From assembly GCA_965153455.1 (NCBI GenBank), contig OZ234493.1:20884213-20948212 (forward strand): a stretch of DNA of 64,000 bases, written 5' to 3'. Below, in pieces: positions 20,548 to 49,232 of the stretch. This stretch comes from Sphagnum compactum. Its lineage: Eukaryota. The position numbers and the translations under genes are program-made. Each line of letters starts with the position of its first letter. Position 1 is the stretch's first letter. Below the pieces are notes generated by a model. It saw only the letters and a list, made by a program, of their open reading frames with translations, was not told where the DNA came from and did no database searches.

Positions 20548-20550
<3 letters not shown>

Positions 20551-20579: not shown

Positions 20580-20581
<2 letters not shown>

Positions 20582-24340: not shown

Positions 24341-25007
24341 TCTCTCCAGTCTGCATTTGCTTTAGACTGCTCTGCTGCACCAACTGAATTTTTCCTCTTT
24401 TTTTTCCTGGCAGTTCTTGACTGATGTGAATGCAATAGCTGTGGACTAGTATAGTTAGTTTGTTGTTGTTGTTGTTGTTTGCAGTGTCTCTTTGTTGAGC
24501 TGCTAGTTCAGTGGTGAGAACTGAGAACCGTTTTTTTCGCTTCAAATCCGTTGGATGTGTTTGCATGAAGATCATGGTCTGATATCACGGACGATTTTTG
24601 TTTATGGGTTTCTTCTTCTTTCTTTTTTTTTGGGTGTGTTGGATTGTTCAATATGAGCTGCATTTGGTGAAGATTCTCACAAATGTGATCGCATTGAGTT
24701 CTTGTTGAGTTCATTTCTTCTTCTTCTTCTTCTTTGGCAAATTGGAGCCCAAGGAATTGCTTGCCTCTGGAAATTATAGATCTCACAAGTCTAAGTACAT
24801 GGGGATCAGGAGGATTCCAGTCATGATTTCTCCTCAAAAGAGCTTGATATGAGCATCTGATGAAGCAGCAATAAATGTTCGAGAAGCTGCAACCCATGTG
24901 GTTTACAAGCTGTAGTAGTACTGAATCTGCTGCTGAGTCAATGTGAATACAAAAGAAGGCAGTGGCAGCAGTCCAGCAGCAGACTGTCAATGAACAGCAG
25001 CAGCAGC

Positions 25008-27746: not shown

Positions 27747-29195
27747 TGTGATATCTGACATGATATCATCACTCTTTCTTCAGGTTTGTGTACACAGCAG
27801 CTCACAACCCTCAAATGCTCCCCCACCATCAACCAGCTCAATTTTGTTTCTCTCGATACCCAGTTGGATACACACACTGTTATATGAAGATGATTTTGTT
27901 GTTTTTATTTTTTTCATTTCCATCAATGTTGATTGGGAAAAATGTGCTGATTTCAGGCACATGAGTTTGGGCATCCTTTTTGTAACATTTGGAAACTTAT
28001 TAAGCTGGGTGTTGTAGTACAACCTACTAAATTCAGTTCAGAAATTCTGGTTTGCAGGGATGGGTCAGGCAAGCTCTGGCAACAACATGAAAGATGTAGC
28101 AGTAGCAGCAGCTCCAGCAAATACATGATAAAATCACAATTGATCATCATGTCCAAATTAGGGCATGTTATGCATCTGCACATTGCCAGGAGTTATCAAG
28201 GAGCAGATGATGCACCACAAATGCACAAGCAGGGGAATTATTATTATTATGTGGGAGTGTTGGAGCAAGGAGGTGGAACTGAAAGTTGCTGCTGGAACTA
28301 ACAAACCAGAACACAAAACCACAGCATTATATTGCTTCTTTCACTTCCGTCATAAGAAATGACAGGTAAGTACTTTGGGCTTGATCCTTTTGCATATGAA
28401 CCCACAATTCAAGAATGAAATGGGTGCAGTTTGTAACTTCATATGTTGTTGCAAATTCAGTCATATGAATTGTTATGAAGAAAAGAATTTGAGTTTTTGA
28501 AGCTGAGAAAATGGATGCAGTTGTGTGACCAACACAATCATACAATTAAGCTGTGACTGAAGACAGGGTGAAAAGATGCATCAAATGACAAAGCAACAAT
28601 AGTGGTTTATTCTGAGATAATTCATATAACTACCATGCAGGTGCCAATATCTCAAAGACCTGAGTTTTAAAGGAGATGCCAGCAGTTTGGCTGTTGGGTG
28701 TTGGAGGCAGAAGCTGATAAGGTGATAAATGGTTTGTTTATGAAGTACCTGATTGGGGGATTGTGGATATTTGCTTTTGTTTGAAGGAGAAAAAGAGCTG
28801 GAAATTATTGCTAGAAAGCACATGACCAGCCAAATGAATGACGGATTCACAAGCATAGAGCTCTATACTTCAACAATGTTCGGTATTTGCCACCTTTTGC
28901 TTGACTACAGGCTGTAACAGGCCATCAACCTGGTCTCAGTGCTTCCACACTCAAAGGGGTGCTCACCTACGCCATTGACTTGGGGATTAGCACGAGAGCA
29001 AGGTCACAAGCTTGGAAGTCATGGCACAAATTGGACATCTGTGGTGGGTCGTGGATGGGTGGTGGACTATGCATCCACAGTAAAAGATTGACAGAAATTT
29101 TCCTTTAGCAAAACAACCAAAAGGGTGTATTTTGCTGTGTTTGAAATCGTTATTTGATTTTGTTCTTTTTGTGTGGTGTGTCTTACAAAGTATGC

Positions 29196-29480
29196 AGAGC
29201 AGCTCCACTGGTGCTCAGTATGTGACTCTCCAAAAACATTTCTCACATCCAAGATTAGTTATTTACTTTTTTTCCAACCCCACCCATAAAACTAAAACTG
29301 GGACTGCAAACAGGTGAGAGACTAGGTGTTAGGCTCTGTTATGCCTTTTCCTAGCCTCAGCATCCTGTGGGAAAATGCTGGGCCAAAACCATTTTGCTGA
29401 GCTAAACTCGCATGTTTTGACTTTTCTTCATGCAATTTTATTTTGCTGGGCCACATACTGAGCACCAGTGGAGCTGCTCT
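29196..29480. mobile_element. MITE with perfect 29-bp TIRs, Harbinger/Tourist-like
   Basis: AGAGCAGCTCCACTGGTGCTCAGTATGTG (29196-29224) is the exact reverse complement of 29452-29480. Confidence 0.85.
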
Positions 29481-30125
29481 TCGAGGGTATATGTGCATGG
29501 TTGTGTATCATCTTGAGAGAGTCATGTTCATTTGGAAATCATGATGAAGAGACATTCTGCGAAAATCACTAGATGGTGTCAATTGATTATGCTAATTTGT
29601 TGGTAGCATTGTTGGACTGGAATCAACACTAACTAATAAGTGGACAAGTCCTTAGTGTAGTGCCACCATAAAAGTGGCTTTACTAATGGTTGAAATTCAA
29701 TTACACAAGTGGGTTGAATTATAGGGTCATTTCAATGGCTTGTTATAAGTTAATGGTTGGAATAAATTGAGTATTGGCAACACTGAATTTGCATAACCCA
29801 TAATGAGGTTCTTTCAATAGGAGAAGGGAAAAAATTAATGGTAGCAAGGTTGGAATATGTAAGTATTTGGATAAATAATTGGATGAAGGTCTTCACTTCC
29901 ATTCCAAAAGGCCTAAAGTCCAAAAATTTCAATACAATTTCGTTTTGCAACCAAGCAACTAGGAAAGCAATTTTCAAAATCCAAAAGTATTTGGGAAAGA
30001 AATAATTTCTCTTTGGAAGTAATCAAGGCTTTTGAATGAAATTGGCTTTCTGGATTTAAAACAAGCTCCCCCCAAAAATCACCATAAATAATCTAGTTCC
30101 CAAAAACAACCCTTCCCCAACAATT

Positions 30126-30135
30126 GGGGGGGGGG

Positions 30136-30166
<31 letters not shown>
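30126..30166. repeat. Poly-G tract abutting the Copia LTR
   Basis: Direct inspection. Confidence 0.9.
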
Positions 30167-30488
30167 TAGAAAATGCAAAACTTTATAATCTTCAAAGAAC
30201 TTACATGAACAACAACTACAACATGGAATGGGATCCTTCCTATATATATGTCCATAATGATCTTGCATACAGTGATGGTAATGATCAGCAGTGATGGTTG
30301 GCGATAATTAACTAAAAAGAAAAAGAACTAACTACTACTTACTAATAATTAATACTTGAACTTATGTGGCTCTTCATATAACAGCTATTACCTTCTCAGT
30401 CTGAGAGAGTCACATGTCCCCTTAACTCACAAAGAGTCAAATAAGAAATATGCTAAAATGATCAAGATTGTTAAATAATTCTCCTACA
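30165..30488 (-). repeat. Copia 3' LTR (minus strand), preceded by polypurine tract 30489-30512
   Basis: Reverse complement of 37917-38236 (TGTAGGAGAATTATTT...TTGCATTTTCTAC); PPT on minus strand GATTGAAAAGGGG..GTG. Confidence 0.9.
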
Positions 30489-31805
30489 CACCCCCCCCCC
30501 CCCCCCTTTTCAATCCTGACTTTCTTGGAATGAAGTATTTTTCTAATGATGAGATTTTTTAAATAAAATTATGATTATTATTATTGTAAAATTTATGAAC
30601 TATTTGAAAAAATCCTTCAACCCATGGTCCAAACTATTGATGATTTTTATTGGCAAATGTTAAAATTTTATGATTATTAGAATAATTCATCCAAGTTTGT
30701 TATTCCTAATTGTCTCCTTGATTCTACAAACTTCAGTCTTCCCATTGGTTTTGACAGCATGTCTGCTTTTTGCTTCGTTGTTGGAATGTATGCAACTTCC
30801 ACATTTCCAACGACAACATGCTCCCTAATGTAGTGATGTTCAATTTCAATGTGTTTTGTTCTTGCATGATAAACATGGTTCTTCACAAGTTTTATGCTAG
30901 ATTGGTTGTCACAAAACAACATAGTTGGTCCTTCTTGCGGTCTGTGCATATCAGCTAGTAAGTTCCATAACCACACAATTTCTTTGGCTCCTTCTGCCAA
31001 AGTCTGGTATTCTGCTTTAGTGGTTGACATTGCAGTAGTTGGCTGAAGCTTGCTACTCCAGTGAATTGGCGCACGTCCAGTTTGAACACCATGCCCGATG
31101 TGGTTCTTCTTTTGTTTAAATTCCTTCCCCAATCCGAATCTGTGTAGTTGATCAATGTTGTCGTACCTACATGAAGATAGAATACTCCATAACATGTTGT
31201 TCCCTTGATGTATCACAAAATCCTTTTTATAGTAGTGAAATGAGTTTGTTGTGGTGCTCTAAGATACTAGCTCACACAACTCACAGCAAAGGATATGTTT
31301 GGCCTTGAATGGGTCAAGAAAATCAAGCTTCCAACCATACTTTGGTACATGAACTCTTTTCCCATGTTCGATTGTAGTTGTAATCCTTCCTCCATCGAGG
31401 TTGAAACAAGGTTGTTGTTCTCCATTTTAAACCTTCACAGCAGCTTGTTGGCATATTTGTTTTGCGAAAAAAAAATTCTTGTTGAAAGGTACACAAACTC
31501 AAGTCCAATGTACTATTGCATGGTTCCAAGACTAGACATTTTGAATTTAGCAGAAAGTTGAATTTCAAGGTCCTTTATTTTCTCAACATGTCCTCTTGTA
31601 ATCATTAAATCATCAACATAAAGGATGATGATAATACACTTATCTCCCTTCATCATGTGATACAAGTTGTGGTCAACGTTGCTTCTAGTTAGACCTTGTT
31701 GCTGAAGAAACTCGTCCATTTTTTAATACCATGCACATGGAGCTTGCTTAAGGCCATAAATGGCTTTTTGAAATCTACAAACTAGCTTCTCCTTGCCTGG
31801 AACCA
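30165..31805 (-). mobile_element. Ty1/Copia element, 3' half: RT C-terminal part, RNase H, PPT, 3' LTR (decayed)
   Basis: LVPGKEKLVCRFQKAIYGLKQAP..WY; ILYVDDLMI; YTDSDWG; WSSKLQ..STTKAEY; CDNQSSIKL..YHARTKHIEIEHHYIRE..ADMLSK. Confidence 0.92.
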
Positions 31806-32075
31806 ATTTTGGAAATAAAGATGGCACTTGAGGATGTAAGGAAAACAACCATAATCATGAAAGTTGGATTGTTTGATTGGAATGTTATGCCTTTTGGCAT
31901 GAAAAATGCAACTAACATTCTTTCAAGGATGACAATTGAGGTTTTTGGAGAACACATAGATAAGTTCTTGAAGATGTTTGTTGATGACCTTAACATATAC
32001 ATCATGACATGGGAAGAACACTTGGAGCATCTCTCATTCATGTTGTTGAAGTTAAGGGAAGCCAATTTAAAAGTC
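31806..32075 (+). mobile_element. Ty3/Gypsy RT middle segment, displaced
   Basis: IKMALEDVRKTT..VMPFGMKNA..FVDDLNIY..WEEHLEHL..KLREANLK. Confidence 0.9.
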
Positions 32076-32812
32076 AGTTTAGCTATAGATCTAGAGTAGA
32101 TAACCATTAAGACTGCCCTAGCTAGACATCAAAACATCTTCAATTAGAGGCATGAGGAATGCATCTCTTCTAGTCTATTGATTCATTGACATGTAGTCCC
32201 CACATAATCAACAACTCCCATCTTTCTTTACTAGAAGTGTCATTCTATAAGCATATTTTGATGTGCTAGGTTTCATTTTCCCCAATGCAACCAAATCATC
32301 TATTTTCCTCTTCACTTTTACCTCTTCCCAAAAAGATAACCTACTTGGAGTAATGTGGCACAACGGAAACCCTTGTGTATCCACAATATGTTCTCCAAGC
32401 TTGTTTAACAACTTCACGTTCACAATTTCCATCTTCAAATGCATCTTGGTTAGATTCCCCATTAGTTTGATTACTTTCTAAAACAAAATCCAAACTCTGT
32501 ATATCATTTGTAATGTCCATATGTTATAAACTTACATCCATCTTCATTTTATTTTCTTGATCTACATTGGACTTAGGTTGCACTTTTTCCATAACAACTT
32601 GCAACGTATTAACCCTATTTAACATGTTAATATTTGTATGTTGTTTTAGGTCTTTGCCTAACTTGGATCATTCCCTTCTTCACATCTACAATTGCCCTTA
32701 TCTTGATCAACAAATCCAATCTCAACAAGAGATGATAGATGAATGGGTCTACAATCACGAATGTCATGAAACATTTCTCCCACCCTTATAAGTATCTCAT
32801 TTATCCTTCCTA

Positions 32813-33139
32813 GTGTTTAACATCAAAAATTTAACATGTGACGAATTAATAATGAAAATCGTGTGAAGTTTGTTCATTTGTAGGTTCATACATTTTACAT
32901 ACAAATATCACGTGTTGAAAACATGTTTGACACATAGATAAATGTGTTGATGGATGAAGTACGAACCTATGAATGAATGAATGTTGCACAAATTTTTCAT
33001 TTTCATATAAATCCATTTGTCAAATGTGTTTTCAATGCATGATATCAATCCAAGAAACATACGAATTATGAATGAACAAATTTTGCATGATTTTCATTAT
33101 TACATCATGAGATGTTAAATTTGTGATGAAATAGTACAC
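32813..33139. mobile_element. Foldback/MITE-like insertion nested in the Gypsy element
   Basis: Long imperfect inverted arms (CATCAAAAATTTAACAT..ATAATGAAAATC vs GATTTTCATTATT..GATGTTAAATTTGTGATG); GTGT/ACAC ends flanked by CTA on both sides. Confidence 0.6.
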
Positions 33140-33969
33140 CTAAAGCAATCTTATATGACTTTGACCCTACCACCATATGCATAATTCTTACTTCACATAC
33201 CATTTTAATGCCATGATAGACAAAAATGTTCCCATATCAACCAACCCTTCCACCACATTGTTGTTAACTTCTACTAGTAGATGTAAAGTTTTACTCTGGT
33301 GACTTTTGTTGATGCAAATCTTATGGATTGCCAAAAAAAAATCTAGCTTGAATGCATTAAATGGTTTCAAATTTTCATCTCACTTCTTCCATGCCAACGT
33401 AACCAAACTCTCAAGGTATTTTAATTTTCCAAGAATAAATAAAATTGTCTCCATTGAAAATAAGGCAATCTTGCATTTGATAAATTGTTTAAGGATCTTC
33501 AATCATGCGTATATCCTTCCCTTAGGATATCCATTGGTCATGTTTGCATGGTTTTATCTTCAACTTTATTAGTTTTTGGTGCCTTCATTTCCATTTGCAA
33601 CCTTTTTTTCGATAGTTTTGCACCGTAAAAGATATCATGTTTGGTCCCACACAATCGACGGCCTCATCATCAACAAGAACTTGTAGGTAATTATTGGTTG
33701 CCAACTCAAGGTTTGACATCTTTCCCCTTCTTCTAGCATTTGTCCTCTATATGGTTCATTCTTGTACAATATCCACATCTAACACCATAGTTTTTTGTCC
33801 TATGAGGAAGATCACCACATTTACCACATTTGGATTTAAAATCTCCTATTCTTAAACATATAGTAGCAAGATGATCTATGGAATTGCATAGTTGGCATGT
33901 AAAAGAGTTATTATTCTTGGAGAACTTGCTCCATGACTTGTTGAAACTCCTTGTTTGAAAAGTTTATGA

Positions 33970-34578
33970 GGGTGAATGCAAGTTATAATGGCTCACTTTT
34001 TGTGACCCATTGCAATTTTTTGCAAGGTGTAGTGAATTAACATGCCATAAAATTATTTATATGCACAATTGGGACGGTTTAAGATTTTCAACTTCAATCA
34101 AAACTATCTATATATATTTGTGCACAATAAATGTGCACCATTATGTAGTAATGGACTTTTGAAGTGAAAACATATGAATTGTCTCGTACATCTATTCTTC
34201 CCATACATATGAAATTTTCAATATCATTTTTTAAAAATATATCTTATAGGAACTTAATATTTGATCAATGAAAAAAAAACATAGATTTGAAAACTTCATT
34301 ACAAAAGCTTTAACCAAAATATAATTATGAACTTTCGAATGATCAAAATCTATACCTTATTTTCAAAAGTCTTTACATGGGTCATTTTTTGTCGGATTGA
34401 TGATTTTTTTCCTTGTAAAATGTATGTCAAAATATTTCTAAGTGGATATATTTTCATATGAACTTAATTAGCTCATTAACCAACCCATAGTCCCCCATTT
34501 ATGGTAATTTGACACCAAAAAATGGAATTTTATGGACTTTTTATTTGTCAAAAAGGAACCACTTAACCCTGTTTACCC
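33970..34578. mobile_element. Non-coding insertion nested in Gypsy gag, GGGT/ACCC ends, 4-bp TSD ATGA
   Basis: ATGA|GGGTGAA ... TTTACCC|ATGA; AT-rich interior interrupts the gag-like sequence. Confidence 0.5.
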
Positions 34579-36312
34579 ATGAATGATATAATAAAAGATT
34601 TGACCTATTTTTCCACCATTTCATCAACCATAATTCCTTCTTCCAACTTTTCTTTCAAAGGTTTACCCAATTCAACCACTACCCATTCTACTGTTAAAGT
34701 TGTAACAAACATAACATCCATGTTTACATAATCCCACATTACACAAAAAAATTTAATTTTAGAACAAAGCTGAAGAAAAAACCTTCTCTTTTGTTCTGCA
34801 TCTTCAAGCTTGCTTTTTATAAACAAATTTTCCATTTTATCATAATAAGCGTGCACCAATTGTTTGAGATCATGTTTGATCACATCTTATTTAACTACAA
34901 TCTCTTCCTTATCAACATTCCCATATTTCAATAGCATGGCTACTTTCAATATGGCTTGCTAATTAATAGGAGTTGTAAATAGCTTCTTGGAACATTATTT
35001 AGATTTGCCTTTTAAGTTCAATCTACCAATCTTGAACAAATTTTGTTCATCAATCCCTATTACTTATGCTGTCATTTCCAACCTTTCCACCCAATCATTG
35101 ACATCCTCAAATACCCTACCCCAAAACAACTCATCCATGTCATTAGGGCTTGTCATTTTAAATTGTTATCCTATTACTAATGAGTAACATTCTTAATATC
35201 TATCCTATGCATAAATTAACATGATCTTCACTTTCATTAATCGAGATGTTCTCTCTCATAAGGCCATGTTCTAACACCCAAGATAGTAATTTGGATGTAA
35301 TTCTAACATGTTGTACTCTAACAATTCTATCTCCCTTTCTGAACAATTTTTCCATGTTAGGTACAAAAATCCTAACATATCAAGTTCCTTTTAAATTGGA
35401 AGAGTAGGTATTTAAATATTTCCTACATAAGGTGGGGGTTTCTTCTTCTCAACATCTTGAAAAACAAACTCAAAACTAAAGGTTTTAAAGGGTTTATTTG
35501 GAATTGAAAATTTTCCTTTGTTTTCAGAGCTCTTTTCCATTTTATGAATGGTTGTGAACAAAATATTTTCCAACGTTGTAATGTGATGCTAATGATGTTC
35601 TAAACTTCATTCTCCTAAACATCAATGCTACCTTTCTTCTCCAAATGATGTTGCACCAAAGTCTATAGGTGTTGCAACAAATGTAATAGTTTCACAAGTC
35701 CTAAAAGTCCATTGGATTTTTTTATGTTGATCTCATCCTACTTTCCAACTTATCACCTTAGAGAAATATCCAATATGTTCCACCTTAATAAGTTTGTTTC
35801 AAGGTGCAAACAACTTTTCCATCCTATAAATAATGAAACATACTTTGTGGTTTTTTTTATCTTATTGCAAATTAGGATTCCATATGTTTCCATTACGAGG
35901 AATGGAATCGAAGAAGTGAAAAAAGTAAGTTATTTTCTAAAATTGAACAACAATTTGCCAGGCTCTGTTGCCATTGCACATCTTCATCTAAATATAAACC
36001 TGAGCCTTAAAGCCTTTATGGGATATTTTTATTGCTAAGTCTCCCATTCTAGCCTTTGTTGGGTCCAATCCAATAATGTTAATCACTCCAAATCCAATAA
36101 TGTGAAAAATAATGGATCCTTATACTAGTGTAGCCATTCACGCATCTTGGTCAAATTGTTGTATCAACTGCTACTCATACACCACTTGTGAATCTTCCTT
36201 GATAAATGTATCTTCTTCATTAAAATATGTCATCCTACAACCAAGTCACACATTATATCCTTAATTCACAAGCTTTTTATTCAACATAGTCACATTAGAT
36301 AAAACCGTTTTA

Positions 36313-37357
36313 ATACCAAAAAGGTGGGTGCAATACTTATGTTATGGATTCACAACAACACATGGCAAGAACACAAATGGATCTTTTAATAAGAATAATC
36401 CACATTTATTACAACCGTACATATCCATAATTCTCCTACATAGTATTCTTACACGATTAAATTCATAATCCTAAACCTATTGGCACAAGGTGGATTAGAG
36501 TATTCCAAATCTCAACTCATTGGGCTATTGTGATTTTTTGATATGGCATCCTAGACACACAACTCATAAATATAACATAAATATAACATCTTGACTTGCC
36601 CCACACAAAATGTCATAACAATTAGCCCGCATTGACTCCTTTGCAATCACAAATTGGGAAGGTCCTAACAAGAAAAATTCCCAACCTCCTAGAACACCAC
36701 CATTTGAAACTCCACACAACAAATGAATTCTTAAAAGAAAAAACCTATACTTAAAACTCCCATATTGATAAGTGCTTGACCTCCCCACACATGCACAACA
36801 TTGTAAATTCCTTACAAACATTCATATAACCGCATATGCCATAAACATATTAGCCCACATTGACCCCTTACAACCTCTCATGAGCTCCAACCATGTTTCT
36901 AAGGACTCATCCACCTTCAACTTCCTAATTATTGAATCCCCTATGTAGTGGATATTTTGGAGATCCATGCATAGATCAAATGAAGTTCACATTTAGGGTA
37001 TTTTTCTCATCAATGTGACTATGACATAGATAAAAACCAAAGAAAACATCAACCTCCTAAAATCATGGAATGTGAAAGTGTACTTAACTTCACAATGTTG
37101 TTGTTATTTATCCTTATTATCCAAAGGTTCCACTCCATTGTTGGCACCAAGCGCATCCACACACAAGAAAAACAAAAGAACACTAGGCTAATGCCAAACT
37201 GTCACCATTTCCATTGCCACTCCCCAAATCATTGAACACTCAACTAAATGATAAACGACAAAGTAGGAGGTGGTTTTTGGCACTTAGATTAAAACAAGTA
37301 CATTTCCTTTCACACCATAAACCCTAACAACATTGTTAGATACAATTATGGGTTACA
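36313..37357 (-). repeat. Gypsy 5' LTR (minus strand)
   Basis: Reverse-complement similarity to 42658-43694 along its length; starts TGTAACC on minus strand; outer flank ACAT. Confidence 0.85.
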
Positions 37358-37916
37358 ATGTTTTCCAAAAACAAAAGAGTCGACATTTGAACTTCAATTC
37401 CTTCAAGAACCAAATTGAAAGATTTAAAATACTTACATTCTAAATGAATGAAATTTGTTTAGCTCATTGACAATTTGTGATCAAGCATGGAGATCGAAGA
37501 AAAGTTCTAATGTGTAATTTGGTAGTTTGGAAGGAGTAGCTAAAAACTCCTTTCCTTGAGTGATTTTTCAAATAATGACAACAATGATTTTTGTGTAAGG
37601 TAACGCCCCAACCCAAGGGCATTAGCCAGTGAAAAACACAACTCAAGTTTATTTATTTATTTATTTTAATCATGATATGTGATGGGTACGAGTGGGGTGT
37701 TTGCTAGATATCATGGTAAAAAATAAAAAATAACATGAGCTTTTCAAAAAACAAAAACACCTGCTTTTGTGGCCATTTCAATTTTCAAAATGCTTGCTTG
37801 TTGCTAATGCCTAATCATGGCATATAAGGCACCAGGCTTCCATTTACATTGCCACAAAAATGCAAATGGTTTTATGACCATTTAATATGTTTAGTGAAAA
37901 ACTTGTTCTCGCACCT

Positions 37917-38236
37917 TGTAGGAGAATTATTTAGCAATCATGATCATTTTAGCATACTTCTTATTTGACTATTTGTGAGTTATGGGGACATGTGACTCTC
38001 TAGAAATGGAGAAGGTAGTAGTTGTTACATGAAGAGTCACATAAGTTCAAGTATTAGTTATTAGTAGTAGTTAGTTCTTTTTCTTCTAGTTAATTATTGC
38101 CGACCATCACCACCTACCATTACCACCGTTATGTGCAAGATCACTATGGACATATATATAGGAAGGATCCCATTCCATGTTGTAGTTGTTGTTCATGTAA
38201 ATGCTTTGAAGATAATAAAGCTTTGCATTTTCTACA
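37917..38236 (+). repeat. Copia 5' LTR followed by tRNA-Met-type PBS TGGTATCA (38237-38244)
   Basis: TGTA...TACA termini; matches 30165-30488 in reverse. Confidence 0.9.
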
Positions 38237-40739
38237 TGGTATCAAAACAACTACATGCTTGAATCTTAAGTTTTTTTTCAAAAGAAAGTGTTTGTTTTGC
38301 TAATGCTTGATTAGTGGAATGCTACAAAGGAGATTTTTTTTTGTTGTAAATAAGTATATTAGTGATAGATTGATGGTAAGCTACATAAGGAATCACTTGT
38401 TTCACAATCATGAGTGAAAGTCAATTTTCCATGTTTAAGGTGAATAAGCGTGAAGGAGTAAGCAATTACGACGTTTGGAAAGTTAAGGTTCGTCAACTAC
38501 TGAGATGAGAATGACTATGGGAATCAGTTTGCCCAATGGAACTGGTTGTAGTAACAACAATACCAGTGCATCCCATTACTCATGCACAAGCCACTGCTCG
38601 AGATGAAGGAGCAATTGAAGAAGTGGTTAAGGTGCAAGAAGATACAGTGGCGCAACAAGCAACTGTAGCTGAGGTACAACAAACAAAGGATGTGACTATA
38701 CTACGATCCGAAAAGGACAAAGCCCTAACTATCTTGATCATGGCAATCAAGGATAATCTGATCCCAATTATAGGAGATCTTTTGGAACCAATAGAAGTAT
38801 GACAAATGTTGAAAAACTTGTTCAAAAGTCATAATGTAGCTCGAACATTGTATCTCACAAACAAACTTCATTCCATGATAATGGAGGAAAGGACTTGGGT
38901 GAGCAACTTCATGCAGATGGTTAAGGAGACAACAACCAATCTTGCTTTAGCTAAAAAAATTATCGACGAATCTAAAGTGGTTGATGTTCACACGAAACTA
39001 TGAATCATTCATCTACTCGATAATTGTTCAAGATGAACTATTGGGTCTTGAAAAATTGATGGGAAAACTCATGTTAGAGGAAAAAAGGAGGGAGGTATGT
39101 TTTGGAGGCCTTGGTGAAAATGAAGTTTTGCTGGTGAGGACCGGAAATTTCAAAAGTGGAACCAAAAATTTTAGAGATAGAACCGAAAATTTCAAAGGCG
39201 AAAAATAATTTCGTCACCAAGATAAAAAAAATTTTGGAAATGGAAGACTTAATGCGTTCAATTCCATGAACAGGTCAGGGCACAACAATCGAGACCAAGT
39301 CAATAGATTCAATCTAAAGAGTGTGGCTTGCTATCGAGAAGATAGCCATGGTGTTGCAACCATTGCTGTGAATTGGGACATTGGGCAAGAATGTGCCCAT
39401 ACATTTCACAATAAGAGCAAAATGGTAAAAATAGACCTTTGATCAATGCCATGGGAAATGAGTTTCAAAAAATTGAGATTTTTGAAACTAATCAAGAGAA
39501 GTTGTCAGAGAGGTTTGAAGTTGCGATAATGATTGAGGATGGAGAGAACAAGATGAGAATGTTAAGAACTGATCAAGGTGGAGAATTTTTGTTTAAGGAG
39601 TTCAATTCCTACTGTGAGCAGAATGGCATAAGGAGACAACTGATAACTGCTGAAACACCACACCAAAATGGCATAACATAATGAAAAAATAGGACAATCT
39701 TGGAGGTTGTTAATACAACCACATATTTAACAAATAGGAGCTCCACTTGTTCAAATGGTGGACTATCCCCAGAGCATGTATACAATGGCAAGGCACCTGA
39801 TCTTAACCATTTGAAGGTGTTTGGTAGCTTGGTTTACATTCATGTCTCCAAATCATGGAGGAGCAAACTTGAATCCAAATCTATCAAATGCATGATGGTG
39901 GGTTACAACAACCGGTCCAAAACATAGAAATGTTTTGACCCAAAGGAAAAGAAGGTGTTAATTAGCAAGGATGTGGTATTTGATGAATGGATAATTGGTT
40001 TATTTGCGCTACCATGAAACAAACATTGAAGTTTGATAACACTACCATTCCACTTGCATTATACAATCCAAAGGCAAGCCATGGGGATCAAGGATCAATT
40101 AAAGTCAATCCGGAATCAATGATCCATGATGATGAACCAACAATAGACAAACCACCACTCCATGGAAATGAAAATCCTACCAATGATGATGATCATTCCA
40201 ACGATCAAAGTCATCTTTCTGAACATGAAGCAGTGCAGCATCCAGAAGAAGCAATTCAACCAGTAGGTCTCATGAGACGAACTTCACAGAGGTTGAGGGG
40301 TGCTTCTAGTTGGAGTCGTGACTACGTGTTTCTCACATAAACACTTGAACCAAAAGAGTACTTTGAAACCATCCAACATCTTAGATGGATAAAAACAATG
40401 CAACAAGAGTACAACTCCATTGTGGAAAATAACACCTGGGATTTAGTAAAGTTGTTAGAAGGAAAAATACCCATCACAACAAAATGGGTATTTAAAATCA
40501 AACAAGCAGAAGGAGACCAAAAGGAGATATTCAAGGCACACTTGGTTGCACGTGGATGTGAGCAAAGGAAAAGGATTGATTTTGAGGAAACATTTGCCCC
40601 CATAATCAAATGGGTGACAATCAGGGTTGTAATAGCATTGGCTGCTCAAAGGAGATGGATCATTCGCCACCTCGATGTGAAGACGACCTTCTTAAACGGA
40701 GAATTAATTGAAGAAGTTTGCATGTAGCAACCTCTAGGC
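37917..40739 (+). mobile_element. Ty1/Copia element, 5' half: LTR, PBS, gag, integrase, RT N-terminus (decayed; protease and integrase N-terminal region not found)
   Basis: gag NYDVWKVKV..; integrase LRTDQGGEF..TPHQNG..LKVFGSLVY; RT ENNTWDLV..KWVFKIK..LVARG..DFEETFAP..LDVKTTFLNGEL.EEV. Confidence 0.92.
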
Positions 40740-43694
40740 AAATGTGAATTCACTAAGACTTGTGTTGGAATTTTGGGTCATATTGTGAATAGGGAAGGGA
40801 CACTACCAAATCAAAGGAAAATTAAGGCAATAATTGAATTTCCAATACCTATATCTATGACTAATGTCCAAGCATTTTTGAAACTTATTGGTTATAACAT
40901 GAATTATTTGAAATGGTATTCCTACATATTTGTGTTTTTATTTGGACTAACAAAGAAAGATACAATGTTTTCATGCAATCTTGATTATCATGCATTTGAT
41001 ATGTTAAAAATGCATTAGTTAGGGAACCCATTCTAATTAGGTTAAATTTCACTAACCTTCCATTTTGGATGTAGAATGGTCAATTCAAGGTGTTGAAGTC
41101 GAAGTATTGGTGCCATTCTATCATGACAATAAGGAAAGAATGAAAGGGTTGTAGCTTATGTGAGCAAAGGACTCTCACATGTTCAAAAGTAGTTTCATCC
41201 AATGGAAAGTGAATGATATGGGGTACCATGCATTTTCAGCAATACTTGTACTATAATCACTTTACCCTACACATTGTCCACAAGCTATTGGAATGGCTAG
41301 ATATTATGTCACACACATACAAAAGAAGAGGAAGGTGGATTAATATATTGCAACTTGCTTCAATTTTAAGATAATGCATTGTGTAGGGTCCAAACACACA
41401 ATTGATGATGCATTAAACAAGATTCAAGTGGGATGTGTGGATGAGGATGAAAATTTCTTAAAAGAGATATAAGACTATGAATGGATGCAACATATTCACA
41501 AGGTGGAAGAAACTTGTCAAACATGCAGATGGAGTTCAAAAATGGGATTGATCTTGCTACATATGGATAGTAAAAAGATGTTCAACCAATTATTTATGGT
41601 TGGAAAAACATAGTTGGAAGCTACATGTGGAAATACAATGATCAATGATGATTCAATTGGGAGTCAAGCGGAGAAGATTGAAAATAAGTAGCACGATCAA
41701 ACTTTGAAGAGGAGATGGAAAGATCTATGGGATACTTAGATGCATCTTCATATATTGAATAAGAATAATCGTTAGTTGATGAAGATGAGGTGGATGGGAG
41801 CTATTTAGAAAGAAAGAAAGATGTGAATGGAATTATTCCAAAAATATGGATATATGGAATGATGATCAAACCATGATGGTTTTAAATGGAGGACATGTTC
41901 TTGTGGATTATAGTATGAATGAAAGTGCCAAAATTTAAAAAAAAAATTATATTATCACTAGAAGCATGATAGATTGATGTTAAAAGAATTGGTGCTTTCA
42001 AAACCTGAGGACCACAAGTAGACTATTTTAAATGTGCATAAAGAGATTGGACACTTTGGTGAAGGATGCATGGTTATTAACTTGAATAGACACCACTTTT
42101 GGCACAACAAAATTGAAGATGTGAAGGTTTGATTTGTGTTTATAAATAATGTTAATTTGTGAAAAGAAATAGTAGTATTAGATTGGATGCGAAGAATCTT
42201 AAAAGTATATTGGTATGGGATCATTTCCATAAATTTGTTTTTGATACAACAAGTCCGTTATTAAATTACAATAACGGATAGGTATCAATAGGGTAATTGA
42301 CAATGTGGGCCAAACAAAAATAAAACATAAACAAATTTATGTTTTGAGGAAGGGAAAGCATATGTTTTTAAGGTTCATTGAAGGGGTGACTTATGTTAAG
42401 ATGAAGAAATTTAAAAATAAAAAATAAATCTCCAATTGGGAGGGACCTTTTTAATTCATAAAATACTTTGATGAGAATGGATTTTTAAAATAAGAAAAAG
42501 CTGGTAGAGTTTGTGTGATCAAGGGAAAAGATGAACACCTTTGGGATAAATTAAGGAAGGATTTCCAGTTTTACCATTTTGCCCCTTGAATGATGAAGAC
42601 TAAAGGTTTTAATCAAAATTATTGGGGAGTGGTTACATCTAGGCCATTGAGGAGCAATGTATTTGACAACATTGTTAAGGTTTATGGCGTGAAAGGAAAT
42701 GTACACGTCTTAGTCTAAATGCCAAAAAAAACCACATTTTTTTAATAATAATCATTCAATTGATTGTTCGGTGATTTGTGGAGCATCAATGGAGATGACA
42801 TTGGTTTATGAAGGTAAGAGACTTTTGGCATTAACTTGCTTTTGTTTTGTTTTTTTGTGTGTAGATGTAGTTGGTGCCAACAATGGAGTGGAACCTTTAG
42901 AGGACGGGGATAAGAAATGATAGTTTAGTGTGAAGTTAAGTACACCTGCATTCTATGTTTTTAGGAGGTTAATGTTTTCTTTGGTTTTTATCTATGTTGT
43001 AATCACATTGATGAGAAAATTGCTTTACATGTGAACTTCAATTGATTTATGCATCAATCTTTGAAATATCCATTAAGTAAGGGATTTAGGTATCATAAAG
43101 TTGGAAGTAGATGAGTCGTTAGAGTCATGGGTGGAACTAATGAAAGGCTTTAGGGGGTTAATGCAAGTTGATCTATTTTTGGCATTTGTGGTTTAAATGA
43201 ATGTTTATAAAAAATTTATGGCACATGTGTGGGGGAGGTCAAGTGCCTATCAATATGGGAGTTTTGAACATAGGTTCTTTTCTCTAGGAATTCACTTATT
43301 GTGTGAAGTTTCAATTGGTGATGTTATTGGTAGGTTGGGGATTTTCCTTGTTAGTACTTTCCCAATTAGTGATTATAGAAGAGTCAATGTGAATTAGTTG
43401 TTGTGACATTTTGTGTGAGGCAAGTTATGATGTTTTGAGAAGCGTTTATGGGATGTATGTCTAGGATGCCATATCAAAAGATCATGATAGCCTAATGAGT
43501 GGGAGATCCATATTGATTTGATCCACCTTATGCCAATTGTTTAGGATTAGATTTTAGTCATGTAGGAATATTATGGATATGTAGGAATGTATCTAATGTG
43601 AATTATTCTAATTTAAACATCCATTTGTGTTCTTGCCATACGTGTTGTTGTGAGTCCATAGCATAAATATTGCACCCTCCTTTTTTTGGTTACA
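40740..43694 (+). mobile_element. Ty3/Gypsy element, 3' half: RT C-terminus, RNase H, integrase remnant, PPT, 3' LTR (decayed)
   Basis: KCEF..ILGHIVNREG..P.SMTNVQAFL.LIGY; RNase H GIGAILS..VVAYVSKGL; integrase HKEIGHFG near 42036; LTR 42658-43694. Confidence 0.88.
42658..43694 (+). repeat. Gypsy 3' LTR
   Basis: Follows purine-rich GAGGAGCAA; ends GGTTACA then ACAT; homologous to 36313-37357 in reverse. Confidence 0.85.
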
Positions 43695-46029
43695 ACATGC
43701 CACCACATATCAACATGCATATGGGCCCAAGGTCCTTTAGTGCCAAAATCCCAAGAAAAATTCATAAGAAGCCATATGTTGCCACTAAGGAAGACACAAA
43801 CCCAATTTGCAATAGTGGAAAGTGGTTCTGGTCCATGTGGAGTGGAATTTCTCAAGTAATAACCTTTTTTTCTTGACTTAGTCCTGAATTCATTGCCACT
43901 AATAAGCACTACTTGGTGCTCATAGGAAGACTTTAACCAATTCCTCTGTTAACATCAAATTGTTCAACAACTCTAACAACACTATTGCACTCTGGATGAG
44001 CCACACCAAGCTGGAACACAAAATGGAATTGCCAAACCTTTGGTCTTAGAGAAGGTCAGCCTCGTATCCAGTTCCACCATAGTGACTTCCAATACCTATG
44101 TAAGTGGGTAAGTATCAGTGTTGTGTGGTTATTTGAATTTTAGAGAACTGTCGTTTCTGTTTTTAAAAATATTTCAGAGTAAGAGAACCATCGATTTCAG
44201 CTCTTTGAAAAAAATCAGAATAAAAAAAACTGTTGGTCCTAGTTATTTCAAAAACCTTAAAGAACTTGAGATTTTCATGAGAGAATTAGTAAAGGATTAG
44301 CAGTTCTATGTCCAGTTATTTGATTTTTTTCAATTTTTTGGGAACCATGGTTATATATCAAAATCTGGTCTTTTGACCTTTTTTAGAATCATGGTTACAA
44401 AGCCTAAGAACCACCTTGATAACTATTGAGGTTTATTCCTGTTTATAATTTTCGCCCATGGATTGAGGTTTAGGGTTTAGGGATATAACTTCGGTTTTGC
44501 TATATAATCATGGGTCTGTCCCTGTTTTGAATAACCATCCAGGTGCCTCGTAGGTACGGAATGTAGGTGATTGTTATGGAGGTGGGTAAGTATGTAAGGC
44601 ACATGGTCACTACTAGGTAGGTAGAGATGCATGTGAATGGTTGGTGCATATCTTGCCATTTAGAGGGTTAGCTGTTGGACAGAAATACAATGAACAAGTG
44701 TTTGGTGTCCACATATCATCCATCTTGTATGGTGCTCACATATCATCCATCTTGTATGGTGCGCTGGTGGGTGTTGGTTCACTCTGGCCCTGTCTCTCTC
44801 AATACTCAAAAGCAGTGTATAGAATGCATCAAAGTCCCTTCTTTTGTTATCAATTCAGCATCTGCTTTAGTTCGGACTCTGGCCATTTGTTAACCAACAA
44901 AATGTTGTTCCCAACACTCACAATTGCAACTTCACAAAGCAAAAGGAATATTGATACTAAGTTCTACTTCACATGGAATTGGAGTGCGCATTCACGTGCA
45001 TGTCTTGATTCTTCGGAATAAAGTGTTGCTTCTGACTTTTTGTTGCATCCACACCGACTTGAGTTAATTTCCCAAGTGAGAAAAAAACTCTCATGTAAAT
45101 GACAAGGAATGACTTTTACTCATTAAAGTAGCTCGGCTCACATGTAGCATTTGGCCTTACAACAATATTTCTCCCATCCAAAATTATTTACGTGCTGATT
45201 CCAAGCCTCTCACCCAGAAACATGAACCTGAGTCATTAAAAGATTAAAATTTATTAATAGCAAACCACTTGGACCAATCAATATATCTGACCATTCCAAG
45301 AGCAAATGTTAGATTGTGCATGTGACTTTCTCCAGTATCAAAATATTGGGAAAAATGCTGAGCCACACCATTTTATTGAGCTTATTGGGCAAATTGTTAT
45401 GGATCAAAACATGCTGTGCAATGTGTTGGTGGAGTTGCTTTTGGGGAGGACAAGAGAAAGTGTGATTTCCTTTTCATGGACATTTGGCTTGGAGTGACCA
45501 GGTTATTGGATTCTTTTATGAATTATTTTTCTTAGTGCTAAGAATGTAAAGAAGCAACCAAACAAAAAAGTTTATTGTTCAAGCCATAAAGGTTATAATG
45601 TAGAGGTATGAGAATTTCATCCCATGGCTATGAACATGATTCAATCTTTCTCAAAAACCTTGAAAACCAAATCAATTTCCCTACATGTAGGTGCAAGATG
45701 AGTGGCAAAGCAACGCGTGATTTGACAATGACACATTGTGCACGACTTTCTAACTGTTGCACGGGGCTAGTGGCTTTCACAAAAGAAGTAGATGGTGGTG
45801 TTCATGGTCAAGCATGGTTTCTTCAGAGTTGCCAAGGCTAGTAGTTCTTGTCCAATGAATCAAGTAGAATATCATTAAAAAGATGATGGTGTTCATGGTG
45901 GACAATCAACCACGGATCATCCATCGATGGATGGTGAGACGACAAAGAATTTGTCTCTAGATATTATCCTAATATTATCCCTTATCCAAATTCAACTACC
46001 ATCTCTTATGAAAGAATTTTTTTGTTGAT

Positions 46030-46059
46030 TCCCACCCCCCCCCCCCCCCCCCCCCCCCC
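46030..46059. repeat. Poly-C tract
   Basis: Direct inspection. Confidence 0.9.
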
Positions 46060-49000
46060 TGCAACCCATTCTCTCTAGCCATACATATACCCAAAGAAAA
46101 GTCTAAAGAGATGGCGCTTGAATCTATACCAAGTGCTTCATTGGGGTTTGCGGATTCGCCTTATGATGTGGCTATTTCCCGTCAAAGCCACCCTTGTGTA
46201 TTTGTCCCGTTGTCCCGGCCCAGCTTTCGCTCTCTACCCCAAACTCATTTTCTCATCCACTCACATCCCCACAATATCTATATTTGCAACAATGCAAATT
46301 TGAAGTAGCACCATCTGCCCTTTTTTAATTCTTCGTAGATCGAAGAGAGGAAATTGTCACATAGGACCCTCCTTAGCTCCATTTTGGCTCATATTTCCAT
46401 GTCAAAAAATTCTGATTAAAGGAATTCATTGGTTCCATTTTGTTCCTAGGATTATCTTCTCACTAGTGACTAGCTCTAAATAATCATTAAAAAAGACTTG
46501 TGTGCATGCTCCCTGAAGAAGTGCAAAATGTTGCACTTTGATCAAGGTCCCAATCTCCTAATGGAAGGGAAATTGAGGGTCACTTCACTCAAGCTCCATA
46601 TATGAAAACATTTCGAGGCCAACAAGTCTTTGTAGCACCTCCTCTCATCCCTTCCAATGGCAATCCTAGCTTTTATCACTACACAAAATATTTTTTTGAA
46701 CCTTTTTTGTTGGTAAAAAATGGGGGAAAAAATCTCTTAAATTTTTTTCCCACAAGTTATTTGCCACCTAAAAAGAAAAATCTCAACACAAATCAAACAA
46801 GTTTAGGCCATCCCAATTACTATAGGTTGTCTTTTAAAGAGCTAAGCATCATTTTCCATTTACTACTTTTGCCATGCATTTCTTTTGTATTCCTTCATTT
46901 TTGTTCTATCCTTTGGTTTCATAGCCAACTATGATTTCCACAACATGTAGGCTCAATAAGATCTCAGCTTAACATGCAAGACTTTATCAACACTCACGAC
47001 AAACCTTCATAGTGCCTAATTTGGGCCCCAAAACATCCAACACCTAACAAATAATTTTCTATAGCCAATACATCACACAATTACTTCTTCCCCTTCTTTT
47101 GCTTCCTCCTCCCCACCCCACCTCTTGGGTGAAAGTTGGGAGATTTATTGGGAGATTTATTGAAACTTGCACAAATTTGGGGATAGATATAGAAATATTG
47201 GGAGATTTATTGGATGAAAATTTTAACATTAATGTTCACATATTGTTCCAATTTTTATTTTTTCTCACCCAAGCATTAAATTTTCACAACATACATATTC
47301 TCACAATCAAAACATCGAAAAGAATATTTAAAATGGGTCAACTTTCATCAATCAACACAAGTGTAAGAAGAAAAGACAAAACATTCATTGTCGATTTATC
47401 ATGATTTTAGGGTATCGAAATATGATGCACATACATTTCACCTTTTGAATTTGAATAAATTAATGTAATTGAGAAAAGATAGCATATGCAACATTGACCA
47501 AAATACATATCTAGAAGGATGTCATCAACACACTTCTTTTGCACTTCACCAATTTCTACTTCTTGGCTCTTCAATGGTGTTCTTTGTAAGGTAATATTAT
47601 TGTGTTTCCTCTTCTCATGAAAGCATTATTAATATTTGATGTCAATAGAAACATCTTCCTCCTCCCCCTCAAACAATCTCTCTAATTTAACACTTGTGTA
47701 ATTGAATTGCAAATGGAGACATGCTCTGACTTATTACAAAACATGACTTCAAAAAGACGTCCAAGATCAACCTTGACAACAACAATTCCTTTGATGGCCA
47801 AGCACACAACAACAATCACATTGAAAAAACACAATCTAGATCATCGAAAATTCATCTAAGCTAAATAGAAACCAATGCAATGCATGCAAATTTATGAAAC
47901 ATGATAAATTTTTCCCTACATTGTGAATCTAACGTTCTAAATTATTGATTTACAATTAAAAAATTTTGTTCTTAAAACAAATTTTGATGTTGGAGATCAA
48001 GTTGGAACATGTCTAAGTACTTAACAATTATGATTATCCATGTGATAATTTGTAAAAATCATCACCAACATGATCTTGCAAAGCTCATCATTCATGGATG
48101 AAATTCATTATTTTCGTTCATTTTTCATGCCTTATATATTAAATCATTCATTTTTGTTCATTTTCATCCATGATGTGCAATTATGAAAATATTCAAGAAC
48201 ATTTCTTGGATGATGAGTTATATGAAAATCTTCATGGAAGTTTTTTTTTGAGCTAGGCCTCAATACAGTTACAACTAGAGATAGTTCCTTTATTATTTTC
48301 AATTTGTTCAATTTGTTCAATATTAAATATAATCTTGTGTTTAAACCTTATTCATTCGTTTCATGTTTCCAATTATTTCATATTCTAAATAAAAAAAAAT
48401 TATGCATTTTTTTTGGCATTCATTTTGTGACCTTGTTTTGGGTTGTTTTGTTATGTGATCGTGATTTAAATTTAGGTTTGGTTTTTGTTATAGATTGTCT
48501 TAATATTTTGTGTATTGTGAATTTTTTTTGACCATGGTAAATTTTTGCATATAGGGGGGTTAATGGGTGATCCAAAAGCGTGCACTTTTTTAGGGTTTAT
48601 TTTATAATATTTTATTATGACTTAAGTTCAATTCCACATTTGAGGATTGTCCGAGTTGAGTTTTCTATGGCACTCATTGATCCATAGGTGCCTTCTTAAC
48701 ACCGTTTGTGACGAGACGAGATGGTTAGAGAACCACAAGGGGGCGGGCCCTAAGAAATTCGGCCTTACAATTTCCCACTCGGGATCATTCAATGGTGGAA
48801 AGAATTTTTCCGGTTTGGAAAAACATAAAAACTAGAAAAGGGGGGCCCTCAAAAAATTGAAAAATGTAAAAAAATTGTCAACATACTCGTGCTTATTCAT
48901 TCAGCCAACAAACAAAAACACCGGCCACGTGCACCCACTCCCCCGGGCCGTGTAACTTGATGGTTGAGGGAGGGAGGGATGGACTCGGTCAATGAAAATA

Positions 49001-49074
49001 TCGGAAGTCGGAACTAACTAACAAACTGCCGAGCAGTAGTCTTACATAGGGAGTGGATGAGTCCAGATGCATAC

Positions 49075-49232
49075 TTTTTTTTGGATGAGACCACCACATA
49101 TGAATTTGTTTTTTGGATGAGACCATGAGACCATCACATATGAACTTGTTTTTTGGATGAGACCATCACACACAAGCTTATTTTTTGGATGAGACCACCA
49201 CATGTGAACTTTTTTTGGGGGATGAGAATGAA
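49075..49232. repeat. Tandem repeat, ~32-bp unit TTTTTTGGATGAGACCA.CACATATGAACT, ~5 copies
   Basis: TTGGATGAGACCA recurs at ~49081, 49113, 49153, 49185. Confidence 0.8.

Follow-up and report, generated by a model that had tools for sequence, protein, structure and literature searches.

Two decayed retrotransposons in Sphagnum compactum, formerly head to head, are each cut inside the reverse transcriptase, with an 8.65 kb piece flipped

We found a locus in Sphagnum compactum that consists of two decayed plant retrotransposons, a Ty1/copia element (Copia) and a Ty3/gypsy element (Gypsy), which formerly stood head to head. Each element was cut inside its reverse transcriptase (RT), and an 8.65 kb piece was flipped. 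The most probable history (about 60%, in our estimate) is that Gypsy and then Copia inserted, that both decayed, that three breaks allowed the 8.65 kb piece to flip, and that end joining, without use of homology, sealed the ends. This is a real chromosomal rearrangement of an ordinary kind, and no new mechanism is indicated. All positions (Table 1) refer to the window, which is the whole 64,000-nucleotide stretch that we analyzed (positions 20,884,213 to 20,948,212 of contig OZ234493.1, assembly GCA_965153455.1).

Table 1. Pieces, long terminal repeats (LTRs), and junctions (J1 to J3), in order along the window
Feature	Positions	Strand	Evidence or remarks
Copia 3' LTR	30165-30488	-	89.7% identical to 37917-38236; purine run before (element sense), ~40 nt poly-C after
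Piece A: Copia 3' internal part (rest of RT, RNase H region)	30489-31805	-	RVT_2, tblastn, family DNA copies
J1: Copia 3' part (antisense) to start of Gypsy RT middle piece	31805-31807		Sequence and bridging contigs
Piece B: Gypsy RT middle piece, ~278 bp	31806-32084	+	RVT_1, protein alignments; ends uncertain by ~3 nt
J2: end of Gypsy RT middle piece, head to head with end of Gypsy 5' part	32082-32086		Sequence and bridging contigs
Piece C: Gypsy 5' internal part (sole recognizable portion, RT N-terminus)	32085-36312	-	tblastn
High-copy 308 bp element nested in piece C, with terminal inverted repeats of 58 nt	32821-33128		Repeats 83% complementary
Gypsy 5' LTR	36313-37357	-	79.0% identical to 42658-43694; outer end 37344 by homology, 37357 in the original prediction
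Piece D: spacer between both 5' LTRs	37358-37916		No family match; present in the relative's contig L003 at 88.1%
Copia 5' LTR (TG..CA)	37917-38236	+	LTR alignment; 91.2% identical to 5' LTR of L003
Piece E: Copia 5' internal part (gag, integrase, SH3-like, RT N-terminus)	38237-40739	+	Pfam, P0002, family DNA copies
J3: Copia RT N-terminus to Gypsy RT C-terminus, QPLG/KCEF at 40739/40740	40736-40740		Sequence and bridging contigs
Piece F: Gypsy 3' internal part (RT C-terminus, RNase H, faint integrase)	40740-42657	+	tblastn, RT_RNaseH
Gypsy 3' LTR	42658-43694	+	Self-blastn, LTR alignment

Both pairs of LTRs are inverted, as originally predicted. A repeat search of 28000-46000 found nine inverted pairs and no direct families. 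By self-blastn, the Copia LTRs (30166-30488 vs. 38235-37917) are 88.3% identical over 324 nt (E = 9e-114), and the Gypsy LTRs (36318-37344 vs. 43685-42658) are 75.9% identical over 1056 nt. The remaining self-matches were just three poly-C/G matches of 26-29 nt, and no duplicated segment was found at the locus. The identities in Table 1 are over 319 aligned nt for Copia (K2P distance of 0.113) and over 1005 aligned nt for Gypsy (0.254). The Copia LTRs are inverted because of the rearrangement.

We compared 122 stop-to-stop open reading frames to Pfam. The Copia RT is in two pieces: RVT_2 positions 1-98 are in the reading frame at 40341-40724 (plus strand, E = 1.3e-27), and positions 134-200 are in 31516-31722 (minus strand, E = 1e-12). 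Both of these matches are above the curated cut-off. The stretch at 38803-39924 (plus strand) matches Retrotran_gag_2 (38803-39000), rve (39415-39678), and SH3_retrovirus (39685-39924), with the gag and rve matches under Pfam's cut-off. The element has an RVT_2-type RT and the Ty1/copia gene order, with the integrase upstream of RT (gag-PR-IN-RT-RH), and gag, rve, SH3_retrovirus, and RVT_2 are all on the plus strand. A tRNA-Met-like sequence after the 5' LTR at 37917-38236 is presumably the primer site.

The two pieces of the Copia RT are colinear with related proteins and related DNA. In tblastn, query positions 16-214 of P0002 align to 40170-40739 and positions 216-251 align to 31806-31699; piece A is also matched by positions 524-652 and 670-748 of P0005. 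More broadly, the Copia proteins P0002, P0032, P0038, P0041, and P0042 run along the plus strand to 40739 and continue on the minus strand from 31806-31815, with a gap of 0-1 residue. All six of the related DNA copies (L001-L005 and L008) match the window up to 40738 and again from 31805 on, and they carry 5 nt of their own between these two points. The peptide LVPGKEKLVC, with which RT had been predicted to resume, is on the minus strand and ends at 31806. Judging from the related proteins and DNA copies, ~3-8 nt are missing at the Copia break. Copia also lacks ~0.9 kb that related copies have, and its 3' flank is a poly-C run in which a 5 bp site duplication is unreadable.

The Gypsy RT is in three pieces, whose order, according to Gypsy proteins, is C (minus strand, to 32124-32130), B (31812-32084), and F (from 40740). 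Pfam matches that pass the cut-off are RVT_1 positions 111-186 in 31752-32096 (plus strand, E = 2.6e-10) and RT_RNaseH in 41213-41371 (plus strand, E = 7.3e-06). Minus-strand tblastn alignments in piece C are P0014 (query positions 71-124) on 32291-32130, P0029 (531-621) on 32399-32124, and P0030 and P0031 on 32447/32450-32130. In piece B, query positions 1-87/88 of P0009 (88.6-89.7% identity) and of P0010 (84-85%) align to 31821-32081/84, and the alignments of P0011, P0012, and P0014 start at 31812. For piece F, the first alignment starts at 40740 in 11 of the 11 matching reference proteins (tblastn). P0009 and P0010 are uninterrupted across the join from B to F, where they read NLKLNLG-KCEF; the window's VSLA, at the end of piece B, is a decayed form of their LNLG. 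These two proteins place the end of the middle piece at ~32082-32084, instead of at 32075 as in the original prediction. The peptides that it quoted for both split RTs are all present, including LDL at 32086-32094 (minus strand) and ..IKMALEDV..ANLK (plus strand).

Gypsy is missing ~5-9 nt at its first break and 0-2 nt at its second. Given these small losses from both elements, judged from colinear relatives, the claim that almost nothing was lost holds up. Downstream of RT, there is a faint tblastn match to the Gypsy integrase (positions 805-839 of P0019 on 42022-42126, E = 0.02), and neither Pfam nor tblastn at E = 0.05 detected Gypsy gag or protease. ACAT is indeed present at both outer Gypsy flanks, and it might be a duplication of the target site. 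This reading is weak because the match needs the LTR to start 13 nt outside the LTR-to-LTR homology, which starts at 37344/42658; the 13 nt between there and 37357 are unaligned.

The arrangement is not a misassembly. Short-read contigs from the same organism, from three studies (runs X1, X3, and X8), bridge J1, J2, and J3 in 3 of 3 runs. J1 is bridged by X1 record 1 (30968-31901, 0 differences), X3 record 9, and X8 record 18; J2 by X1 record 2 and X3 record 10 (31874-32856) and by X8 record 19 (31879-32856); and J3 by X1 record 7 (40575-43491), X3 record 15, and X8 record 22. X8 is another individual, because its contigs differ from the window by 5, 8, and 22 letters at J1, J2, and J3, respectively. 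The long-range order is supported at each junction separately, by contigs no longer than 2.9 kb, rather than by one molecule across the 13.5 kb. In run X9, from a second organism (with a small word share), none of the contigs listed bridges J1, J2, or J3. Among those contigs, coverage apparently ends near 31806, and there is almost none at 32001-32500 and 41001-41500.

The uninverted state, which the original prediction would have sought in other accessions, turned up in a related plant, on the Copia side only. Three public contigs of this plant (L001-L003), which overlap each other at 99.0-99.7% identity, jointly tile the end of the Gypsy 5' LTR, the spacer, an unbroken Copia, and the window's left flank (29940-24381, 96-97%). 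They match the uninverted state predicted for Copia, with the same neighbors. A stop codon four codons before the Copia break is common to the window and L001-L003 and is absent from L004, L005, and L008. Among four distinct copies, the Copia of L001-L003 is closest to that of the window in all three segments compared, by a narrow margin: across piece E, the distances are 0.100-0.107, vs. 0.109-0.127 for the other copies. The distance between the 5' LTRs of the window and L003 (0.088) is less than the distance between the window's own Copia LTRs (0.103), as it should be if Copia inserted before the lineages split. L003 stops 210 nt into the Gypsy LTR, and the contiguity of Gypsy is judged from paralogous proteins only.

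Identity to the window is 85-92% in the relative's retrotransposon block, vs. 97% in the flank. The ratio of transitions to transversions is 2.1-4.2 in the block vs. 1.2-1.65 in the flank, and we explain the gap in identity by faster, transition-rich decay of the block. There is a small chance that the relative's block is paralogous instead of orthologous. Among 100 flanking reading frames (19963-29507 and 44480-52746), Pfam found nothing that fixes the orientation of the spacer independently. One of these reading frames has weak EGF-like matches.

In the history that we favor, Gypsy would have inserted first, and Copia would have inserted later, ~560 bp away and oppositely oriented, with both 5' LTRs face to face. 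Both elements would have decayed before the breakage. Then, in the lineage of the window's organism, the Copia RT would have broken once and the Gypsy RT twice, 278 bp apart. The 8.65 kb piece (the Copia 5' half, the spacer, and the Gypsy 5' half) would have been reinserted in flipped orientation beyond the 278 bp piece, which would have kept its orientation and swapped places with it. End joining without homology would have cost Copia about one codon and Gypsy ~2-3 codons at its first break and nothing at its second. Because the 278 bp piece keeps its orientation, either three breaks or two inversions with a common breakpoint are required. The single two-break inversion of 31806-40739 that was originally proposed fails to give the observed order, as that proposal half-saw in its call to re-flip the small piece. 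Its ancestor was right in that two once-whole elements in opposite orientation were broken in RT after insertion, but these are not near-intact, given the shortened Copia and the undetected gag and protease of Gypsy. One end-joining event is our best reading, and we infer both the single event and the break-and-join repair.

The break sites offer little homology. When the unbroken Copia break site is compared with each of the four Gypsy ends, the longest exact match is 4-6 nt; random 32-mers from these elements give P(≥6) = 0.27. Self-blastn at E = 1e-5 found no match between break sites. Microhomology via the Gly-Phe and Leu-Gly codons that are common to the break sites was also considered and is not above chance. 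Non-allelic homologous recombination (NAHR) would imply long inverted homology at both breakpoints, and staggered breaks would imply an inverted duplication at both ends; neither is present, and the 278 bp piece is single copy in the window. FoSTeS/MMBIR would imply copy gain or templated insertions, and microhomology at each junction; we saw no copy gain, and microhomology, as judged from the unbroken Copia and the window's Gypsy ends, is not above chance. The balanced product, the blunt or near-blunt junctions, the loss of a few nt, and the lack of homology above chance fit end joining as the probable repair pathway.

Two successive inversions with one common breakpoint (a flip of 278 bp and then of the whole 8.93 kb, or the reverse order) would have the identical end product, and each step would be a simple and common two-break inversion. 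One event and two are indistinguishable from sequence. However, the second inversion must cut within a few nt of the first one's junction, and no intermediate was seen: 3 of 3 runs carry all three junctions, and the relative's Copia is fully unbroken. We consider this route unlikely. Replicative template switching (FoSTeS/MMBIR) seems no likelier: copying the Copia 3' part, the 278 bp piece, the 8.65 kb backwards, and the rest of Gypsy would yield the observed order with three switches in a single pass, and the small losses at the junctions are compatible with this. FoSTeS/MMBIR-type events usually alter copy number, but nothing is duplicated or triplicated at the locus, and the microhomology is at the level of chance.

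The original prediction noted correctly that every breakpoint is in the RT of two unrelated superfamilies, but we found nothing beyond chance behind this. Given that the breaks are within both elements, arithmetic from the element lengths gives ~1% for all three to be inside RT-coding DNA. Their location is unexplained and is probably due to chance. It is quite improbable that one process favored the RT-coding DNA of neighboring divergent retroelements, such as breakage tied to transcription or replication; if it did, small balanced inversions in plant genomes would repeatedly involve pol genes from unrelated superfamilies as partners. Still more doubtful is an exchange via common RT motifs, in which coding similarity between the superfamilies set the break sites. 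Besides the shared location, Gly-Phe precedes the first Gypsy break and Leu-Gly the second, and each of these pairs also precedes the Copia break. But the exact matches are as expected at random, the observed junctions do not pair similar sites, and, by our reading of the motifs, the Gypsy Gly-Phe aligns structurally with a Copia Thr-Phe that is 17 codons upstream of the Copia break. Least probable of all is an assembly artefact or a chance neighborhood of unrelated truncated copies. The elements are old, with LTR pairs that are only 79-90% alike, and no single read was seen across the region; against this, contigs from three studies bridge the junctions, at three sites the break ends fit each other to within one codon, and the relative has the same flanks and an unbroken Copia.

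Ectopic recombination between inverted transposable elements of the same family requires long homology and yields two complete chimeric elements with direct LTRs. The locus is similar in having oppositely oriented transposable elements at both ends of the inverted piece, but its partners are Copia and Gypsy, their homology is at most 6 nt, and both elements were left split. In the staggered-break model from Drosophila, a short stretch is duplicated at both ends of the inversion, in opposite orientation. Here too, one breakpoint has a short stretch that departs from the rest, but it was not duplicated. Narrow word searches of the literature found no description of a split Copia-Gypsy pair of this kind.

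Closer parallels in wheat, as given in part of one study, are end-joining cases with breakpoints inside truncated elements of different families, such as BARE1/WIS vs. Fatima, with a few nt of microhomology; the authors ascribe these events to double-strand-break repair by NHEJ (PMC7156093). Breakpoints within unrelated transposable elements are common to those cases and our locus, but the wheat events described there are deletions or replacements, while at the Sphagnum locus nothing was lost and a piece was flipped. In CRISPR-edited poplar, the repair of several simultaneous double-strand breaks close to each other produced inversions and complex rearrangements, some of which the authors put down to HDR/MMEJ (bioRxiv 10.1101/2022.08.26.505498). 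The poplar breaks, in the portion of the preprint that we cite, were induced in a tandem gene array with long homology, while ours are natural and no homology was found.

The locus is a cleanly resolved, natural, copy-neutral rearrangement, by three breaks in our reading, in which each fragment is traced to within a few nucleotides. This was possible because retrotransposon genes have a known intact order, against which the broken pieces could be set. One partner is still unbroken in a relative, and the locus could be used as a marker of lineage history. It is also a worked example of how split retrotransposons reveal small inversions that synteny maps miss.

The nested element inside piece C has a summed contig depth of 1047-1187 in X1, vs. 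~30 nearby, and contigs have loose ends at 32820 and 33128 in 4 of 4 runs.

Two retrotransposons are interleaved in this region. By self-blastn, one pair of LTRs (30166-30488 and 37917-38235) is inverted and 88.3% identical over 324 nt, and another (36318-37344 and 42658-43685) is inverted and 75.9% identical over 1056 nt; when aligned globally, the pairs are 89.7% and 79.0% identical (K2P distances of 0.113 and 0.254). The first pair belongs to a Ty1/copia element and the second to a Ty3/gypsy element. A repeat search of 28000-46000 gave 9 inverted repeat pairs and 0 direct families, and self-blastn found no further copies of either family in the 64 kb window besides three poly-C/G matches of 26-29 nt. 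Domains were called with Pfam on 122 stop-to-stop ORFs. The originally predicted order of the six pieces, A to F, is borne out (see the table).

Pieces, domains, junction-bridging contigs and the relative's tiling (window positions)
Feature	Position	Strand	Basis or detail
A, Copia 3' half	30489-31805	-	
B, Gypsy RT middle	31806-32084	+	
C, Gypsy 5' half	32085-36312	-	
D, spacer	37358-37916		
E, Copia 5' half	38237-40739	+	
F, Gypsy 3' half	40740-42657	+	
Copia gag, integrase, SH3-like domain	38803-39924	+	Pfam
Copia RVT_2 positions 1-98	in 40341-40724	+	Pfam
Copia RVT_2 positions 134-200	in 31516-31722	-	Pfam
Gypsy RVT_1 positions 111-186	in 31752-32096	+	Pfam
Gypsy RT_RNaseH	in 41213-41371	+	Pfam
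Gypsy RT N-terminus	32450-32124	-	tblastn only
A/B junction, bridging contigs	30968-31901 (X1); 30561-31901 (X3); 30968-31901 (X8)		5 differences in X8
B/C junction, bridging contigs	31874-32856 (X1, X3); 31879-32856 (X8)		8 differences in X8
E/F junction, bridging contigs	40575-43491 (X1); 40575-42450 (X3); 40575-43496 (X8)		22 differences in X8
Relative, step 1: Gypsy 5' LTR end	37133-37357		92.4%
Relative, step 2: spacer			88.1%
Relative, step 3: Copia 5' LTR and 5' internal part	to 40738		LTR 91.2%
Relative, step 4: 5 own nt, then Copia	31805 down to 30454		
Relative, step 5: window's left flank	29940 down to 24381		96-97% over ~5.5 kb

The junctions are not a misassembly. Each of the three is bridged by short-read contigs in 3/3 runs from the window's own organism, organism A (X1, X3 and X8, from three studies). 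This bridging is junction by junction, with no single contig record across the whole region. The assembly may derive from one of the best-matching runs, though clearly not from X8, since that run has sequence differences of its own.

The broken ends fit together closely, as judged piece by piece and with junction positions good to about ±3 nt. Alignments of Copia-family proteins extend to 40739 and pick up again on the opposite strand at 31806-31815, skipping 0-1 residue (for instance, q16-214 then q216-251 of P0002, and q1-98 then q100-116 of P0038). All 6 related DNA copies match as far as 40738 and then again from 31805, with 5 nt of their own unmatched in between. Because both proteins and DNA copies resume with this gap, Copia is missing roughly one codon, for the Phe in the QPxGF motif. 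Gypsy reference proteins run from C (to 32124-32130) to B (31812-32084) and on to F (from 40740). The close relatives P0009 (88.6-89.7% identical to B) and P0010 are continuous across the B-to-F join as NLKLNLG-KCEF, so B ends at about 32084. More distant relatives have three residues between LDL (in C) and FW (in B), which implies a small loss there. The claim that almost nothing was lost is thus right: 3-8 nt from Copia, allowing for mismatched end letters, about 5-9 nt at the first Gypsy break, and none at the second.

The Copia side of the predicted ancestral arrangement is present in a related plant. When metagenome contigs were searched with the N-terminal part of the Copia RT, 78 loci came up, 9 of which match the region by blastn. 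Three of them (L001-L003) are one locus, since their mutual overlaps are 99.0-99.7% identical. Their order is the one predicted for the ancestor's Copia side, with the same neighbours on both sides and Copia unbroken. L003 reaches only 210 nt of the Gypsy LTR, and the ancestral Gypsy half therefore lies outside the contigs.

The ancestor would read A E' D' C' B F (primes mark reverse complements), while the window reads A B C D E F. The original prediction was a single inversion of 31806-40739, but one two-break inversion cannot yield the observed order: the 8.65 kb of E'D'C' was flipped and swapped places with B, whose orientation is unchanged. This product could be reached by three breaks rejoined at once, by two inversions sharing a breakpoint, or by a single replication pass that switched template three times. 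Self-blastn found no duplicated segment at the locus. Between the natural, unbroken Copia site (in L002) and each of the four Gypsy ends, exact matches reach 4-6 nt at most, and random 32-mers of these elements reach at least 6 nt in 27% of 3000 trials. Because nothing is duplicated, matches are at chance level, and losses are a few nt, the locus has the signature of end joining.

We therefore favor three breaks whose ends would have been rejoined in one end-joining event (probability about 0.6). With two inversions, the later one would have had to break only a few nt from a junction left by the first, and a single event is more economical; we consider the nested inversions unlikely, and switching of templates, which would also give this order, improbable to a similar degree. 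Recombination between inverted homologous copies was rejected, as there is no self-match at the break sites and exact matches of at most 6 nt are at chance level; so was a staggered-break model, as nothing is duplicated.

All of the breaks are in RT-coding DNA. Given breaks within these two elements, the chance of this is about 1% by our own after-the-fact arithmetic (Copia of ~4.5 kb and Gypsy of ~8.5 kb with nested inserts; RT domains of ~0.7 and ~0.6 kb). The break sites do not correspond in position within RT, and their sequence similarity is no higher than chance. We treat the coincidence as chance, and a non-chance cause seems very improbable. The kind of event is already known, and this locus is a new, well-resolved instance. 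In wheat, rearrangements whose breakpoints fall within transposable elements of unrelated families, with microhomology only, have been described and attributed to NHEJ (PMC7156093), and in poplar a study describes complex inversions following several nearby breaks (bioRxiv 10.1101/2022.08.26.505498).

Is the relative's Copia the same insertion? L001-L003 and the window have in common a stop codon located four codons ahead of the break, where three other copies (L004, L005 and L008) have Gln. Among four distinct copies, the relative's is the nearest in 3/3 segments, narrowly (distances to the window of 0.100-0.107 vs. 0.109-0.127, 0.102-0.111 vs. 0.123-0.142, and 0.137-0.141 vs. 0.155-0.169 for the others). 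For the 5' LTR, the window and L003 are at a distance of 0.088, less than the 0.103 between the window's own two LTRs, which is what an insertion older than the split of the two lineages would give. The common stop codon, the nearest Copia and the LTR distances are evidence that the insertion is the same. The relative lacks 29941-30453 (513 nt, at L002:2257), a stretch that takes in 224 nt of flank and the greater part of the Copia 3' LTR.

The retrotransposon block (30454-40738) is 85-92% identical between relative and window, vs. 97% for the flank (24381-29940). The excess divergence is mainly transitions (ts/tv of 2.1-4.2 in the block vs. 1.2-1.65 in the flank), and the contrast may arise because methylated repeat DNA decays faster. 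The same pattern holds for organism B, with ~1.3% divergence in the flank vs. 4-8% in the block. A contig from its run, X9, omits 533 nt of the Gypsy 3' LTR (43086-43620) and continues into the right flank, so the Gypsy insertion is common to organism B.

The elements are not near-intact. Copia is ~0.9 kb short at 39534 relative to L003, L005 and L008. In the Gypsy 5' half, which holds nested high-copy inserts, gag and protease were not found by Pfam or tblastn. ACAT does read at both outer Gypsy flanks, but as a site duplication it is weakly supported: LTR-LTR homology begins 13 nt inside the LTR start first assigned. A purine-rich tract adjoins the homology-defined start on the 3' side, and if the LTR is taken to start there, the flanks show no matching duplication. 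Copia's site duplication is unreadable because its 3' LTR passes into ~40 nt of poly-C.

This poly-C (30125-30165), at the LTR's outer end, resembles a homopolymer run 16 kb off (46031-46060); a 16 nt G run lies at the inner border. Nested in the Gypsy 5' half is a 308 bp element (32821-33128) with 58 nt terminal inverted repeats (83%). Its summed contig depth is ~1000-1700 vs. ~30-40 nearby in 4/4 runs, with loose ends at both borders, and it looks like a high-copy MITE common to organisms A and B. A second high-copy stretch (34035-34545; depth 145-894 vs. 8-40 nearby) has many small indel variants among contigs. In X8, one 2430-letter contig links 35909 to 39480 through 385 other letters, and depth falls almost to zero over 36501-37000 and 38501-39500. 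Part of the flipped piece seems to have been deleted or replaced in this individual, taking with it much of the spacer and of the two 5' LTRs. Farther right, 49181-50315 has long ORFs (up to 282 aa) in several frames and on either strand, none of them with a Pfam match, and is probably low-complexity or repeat DNA, and a nearby ORF (50423-50758) has weak EGF-like matches.
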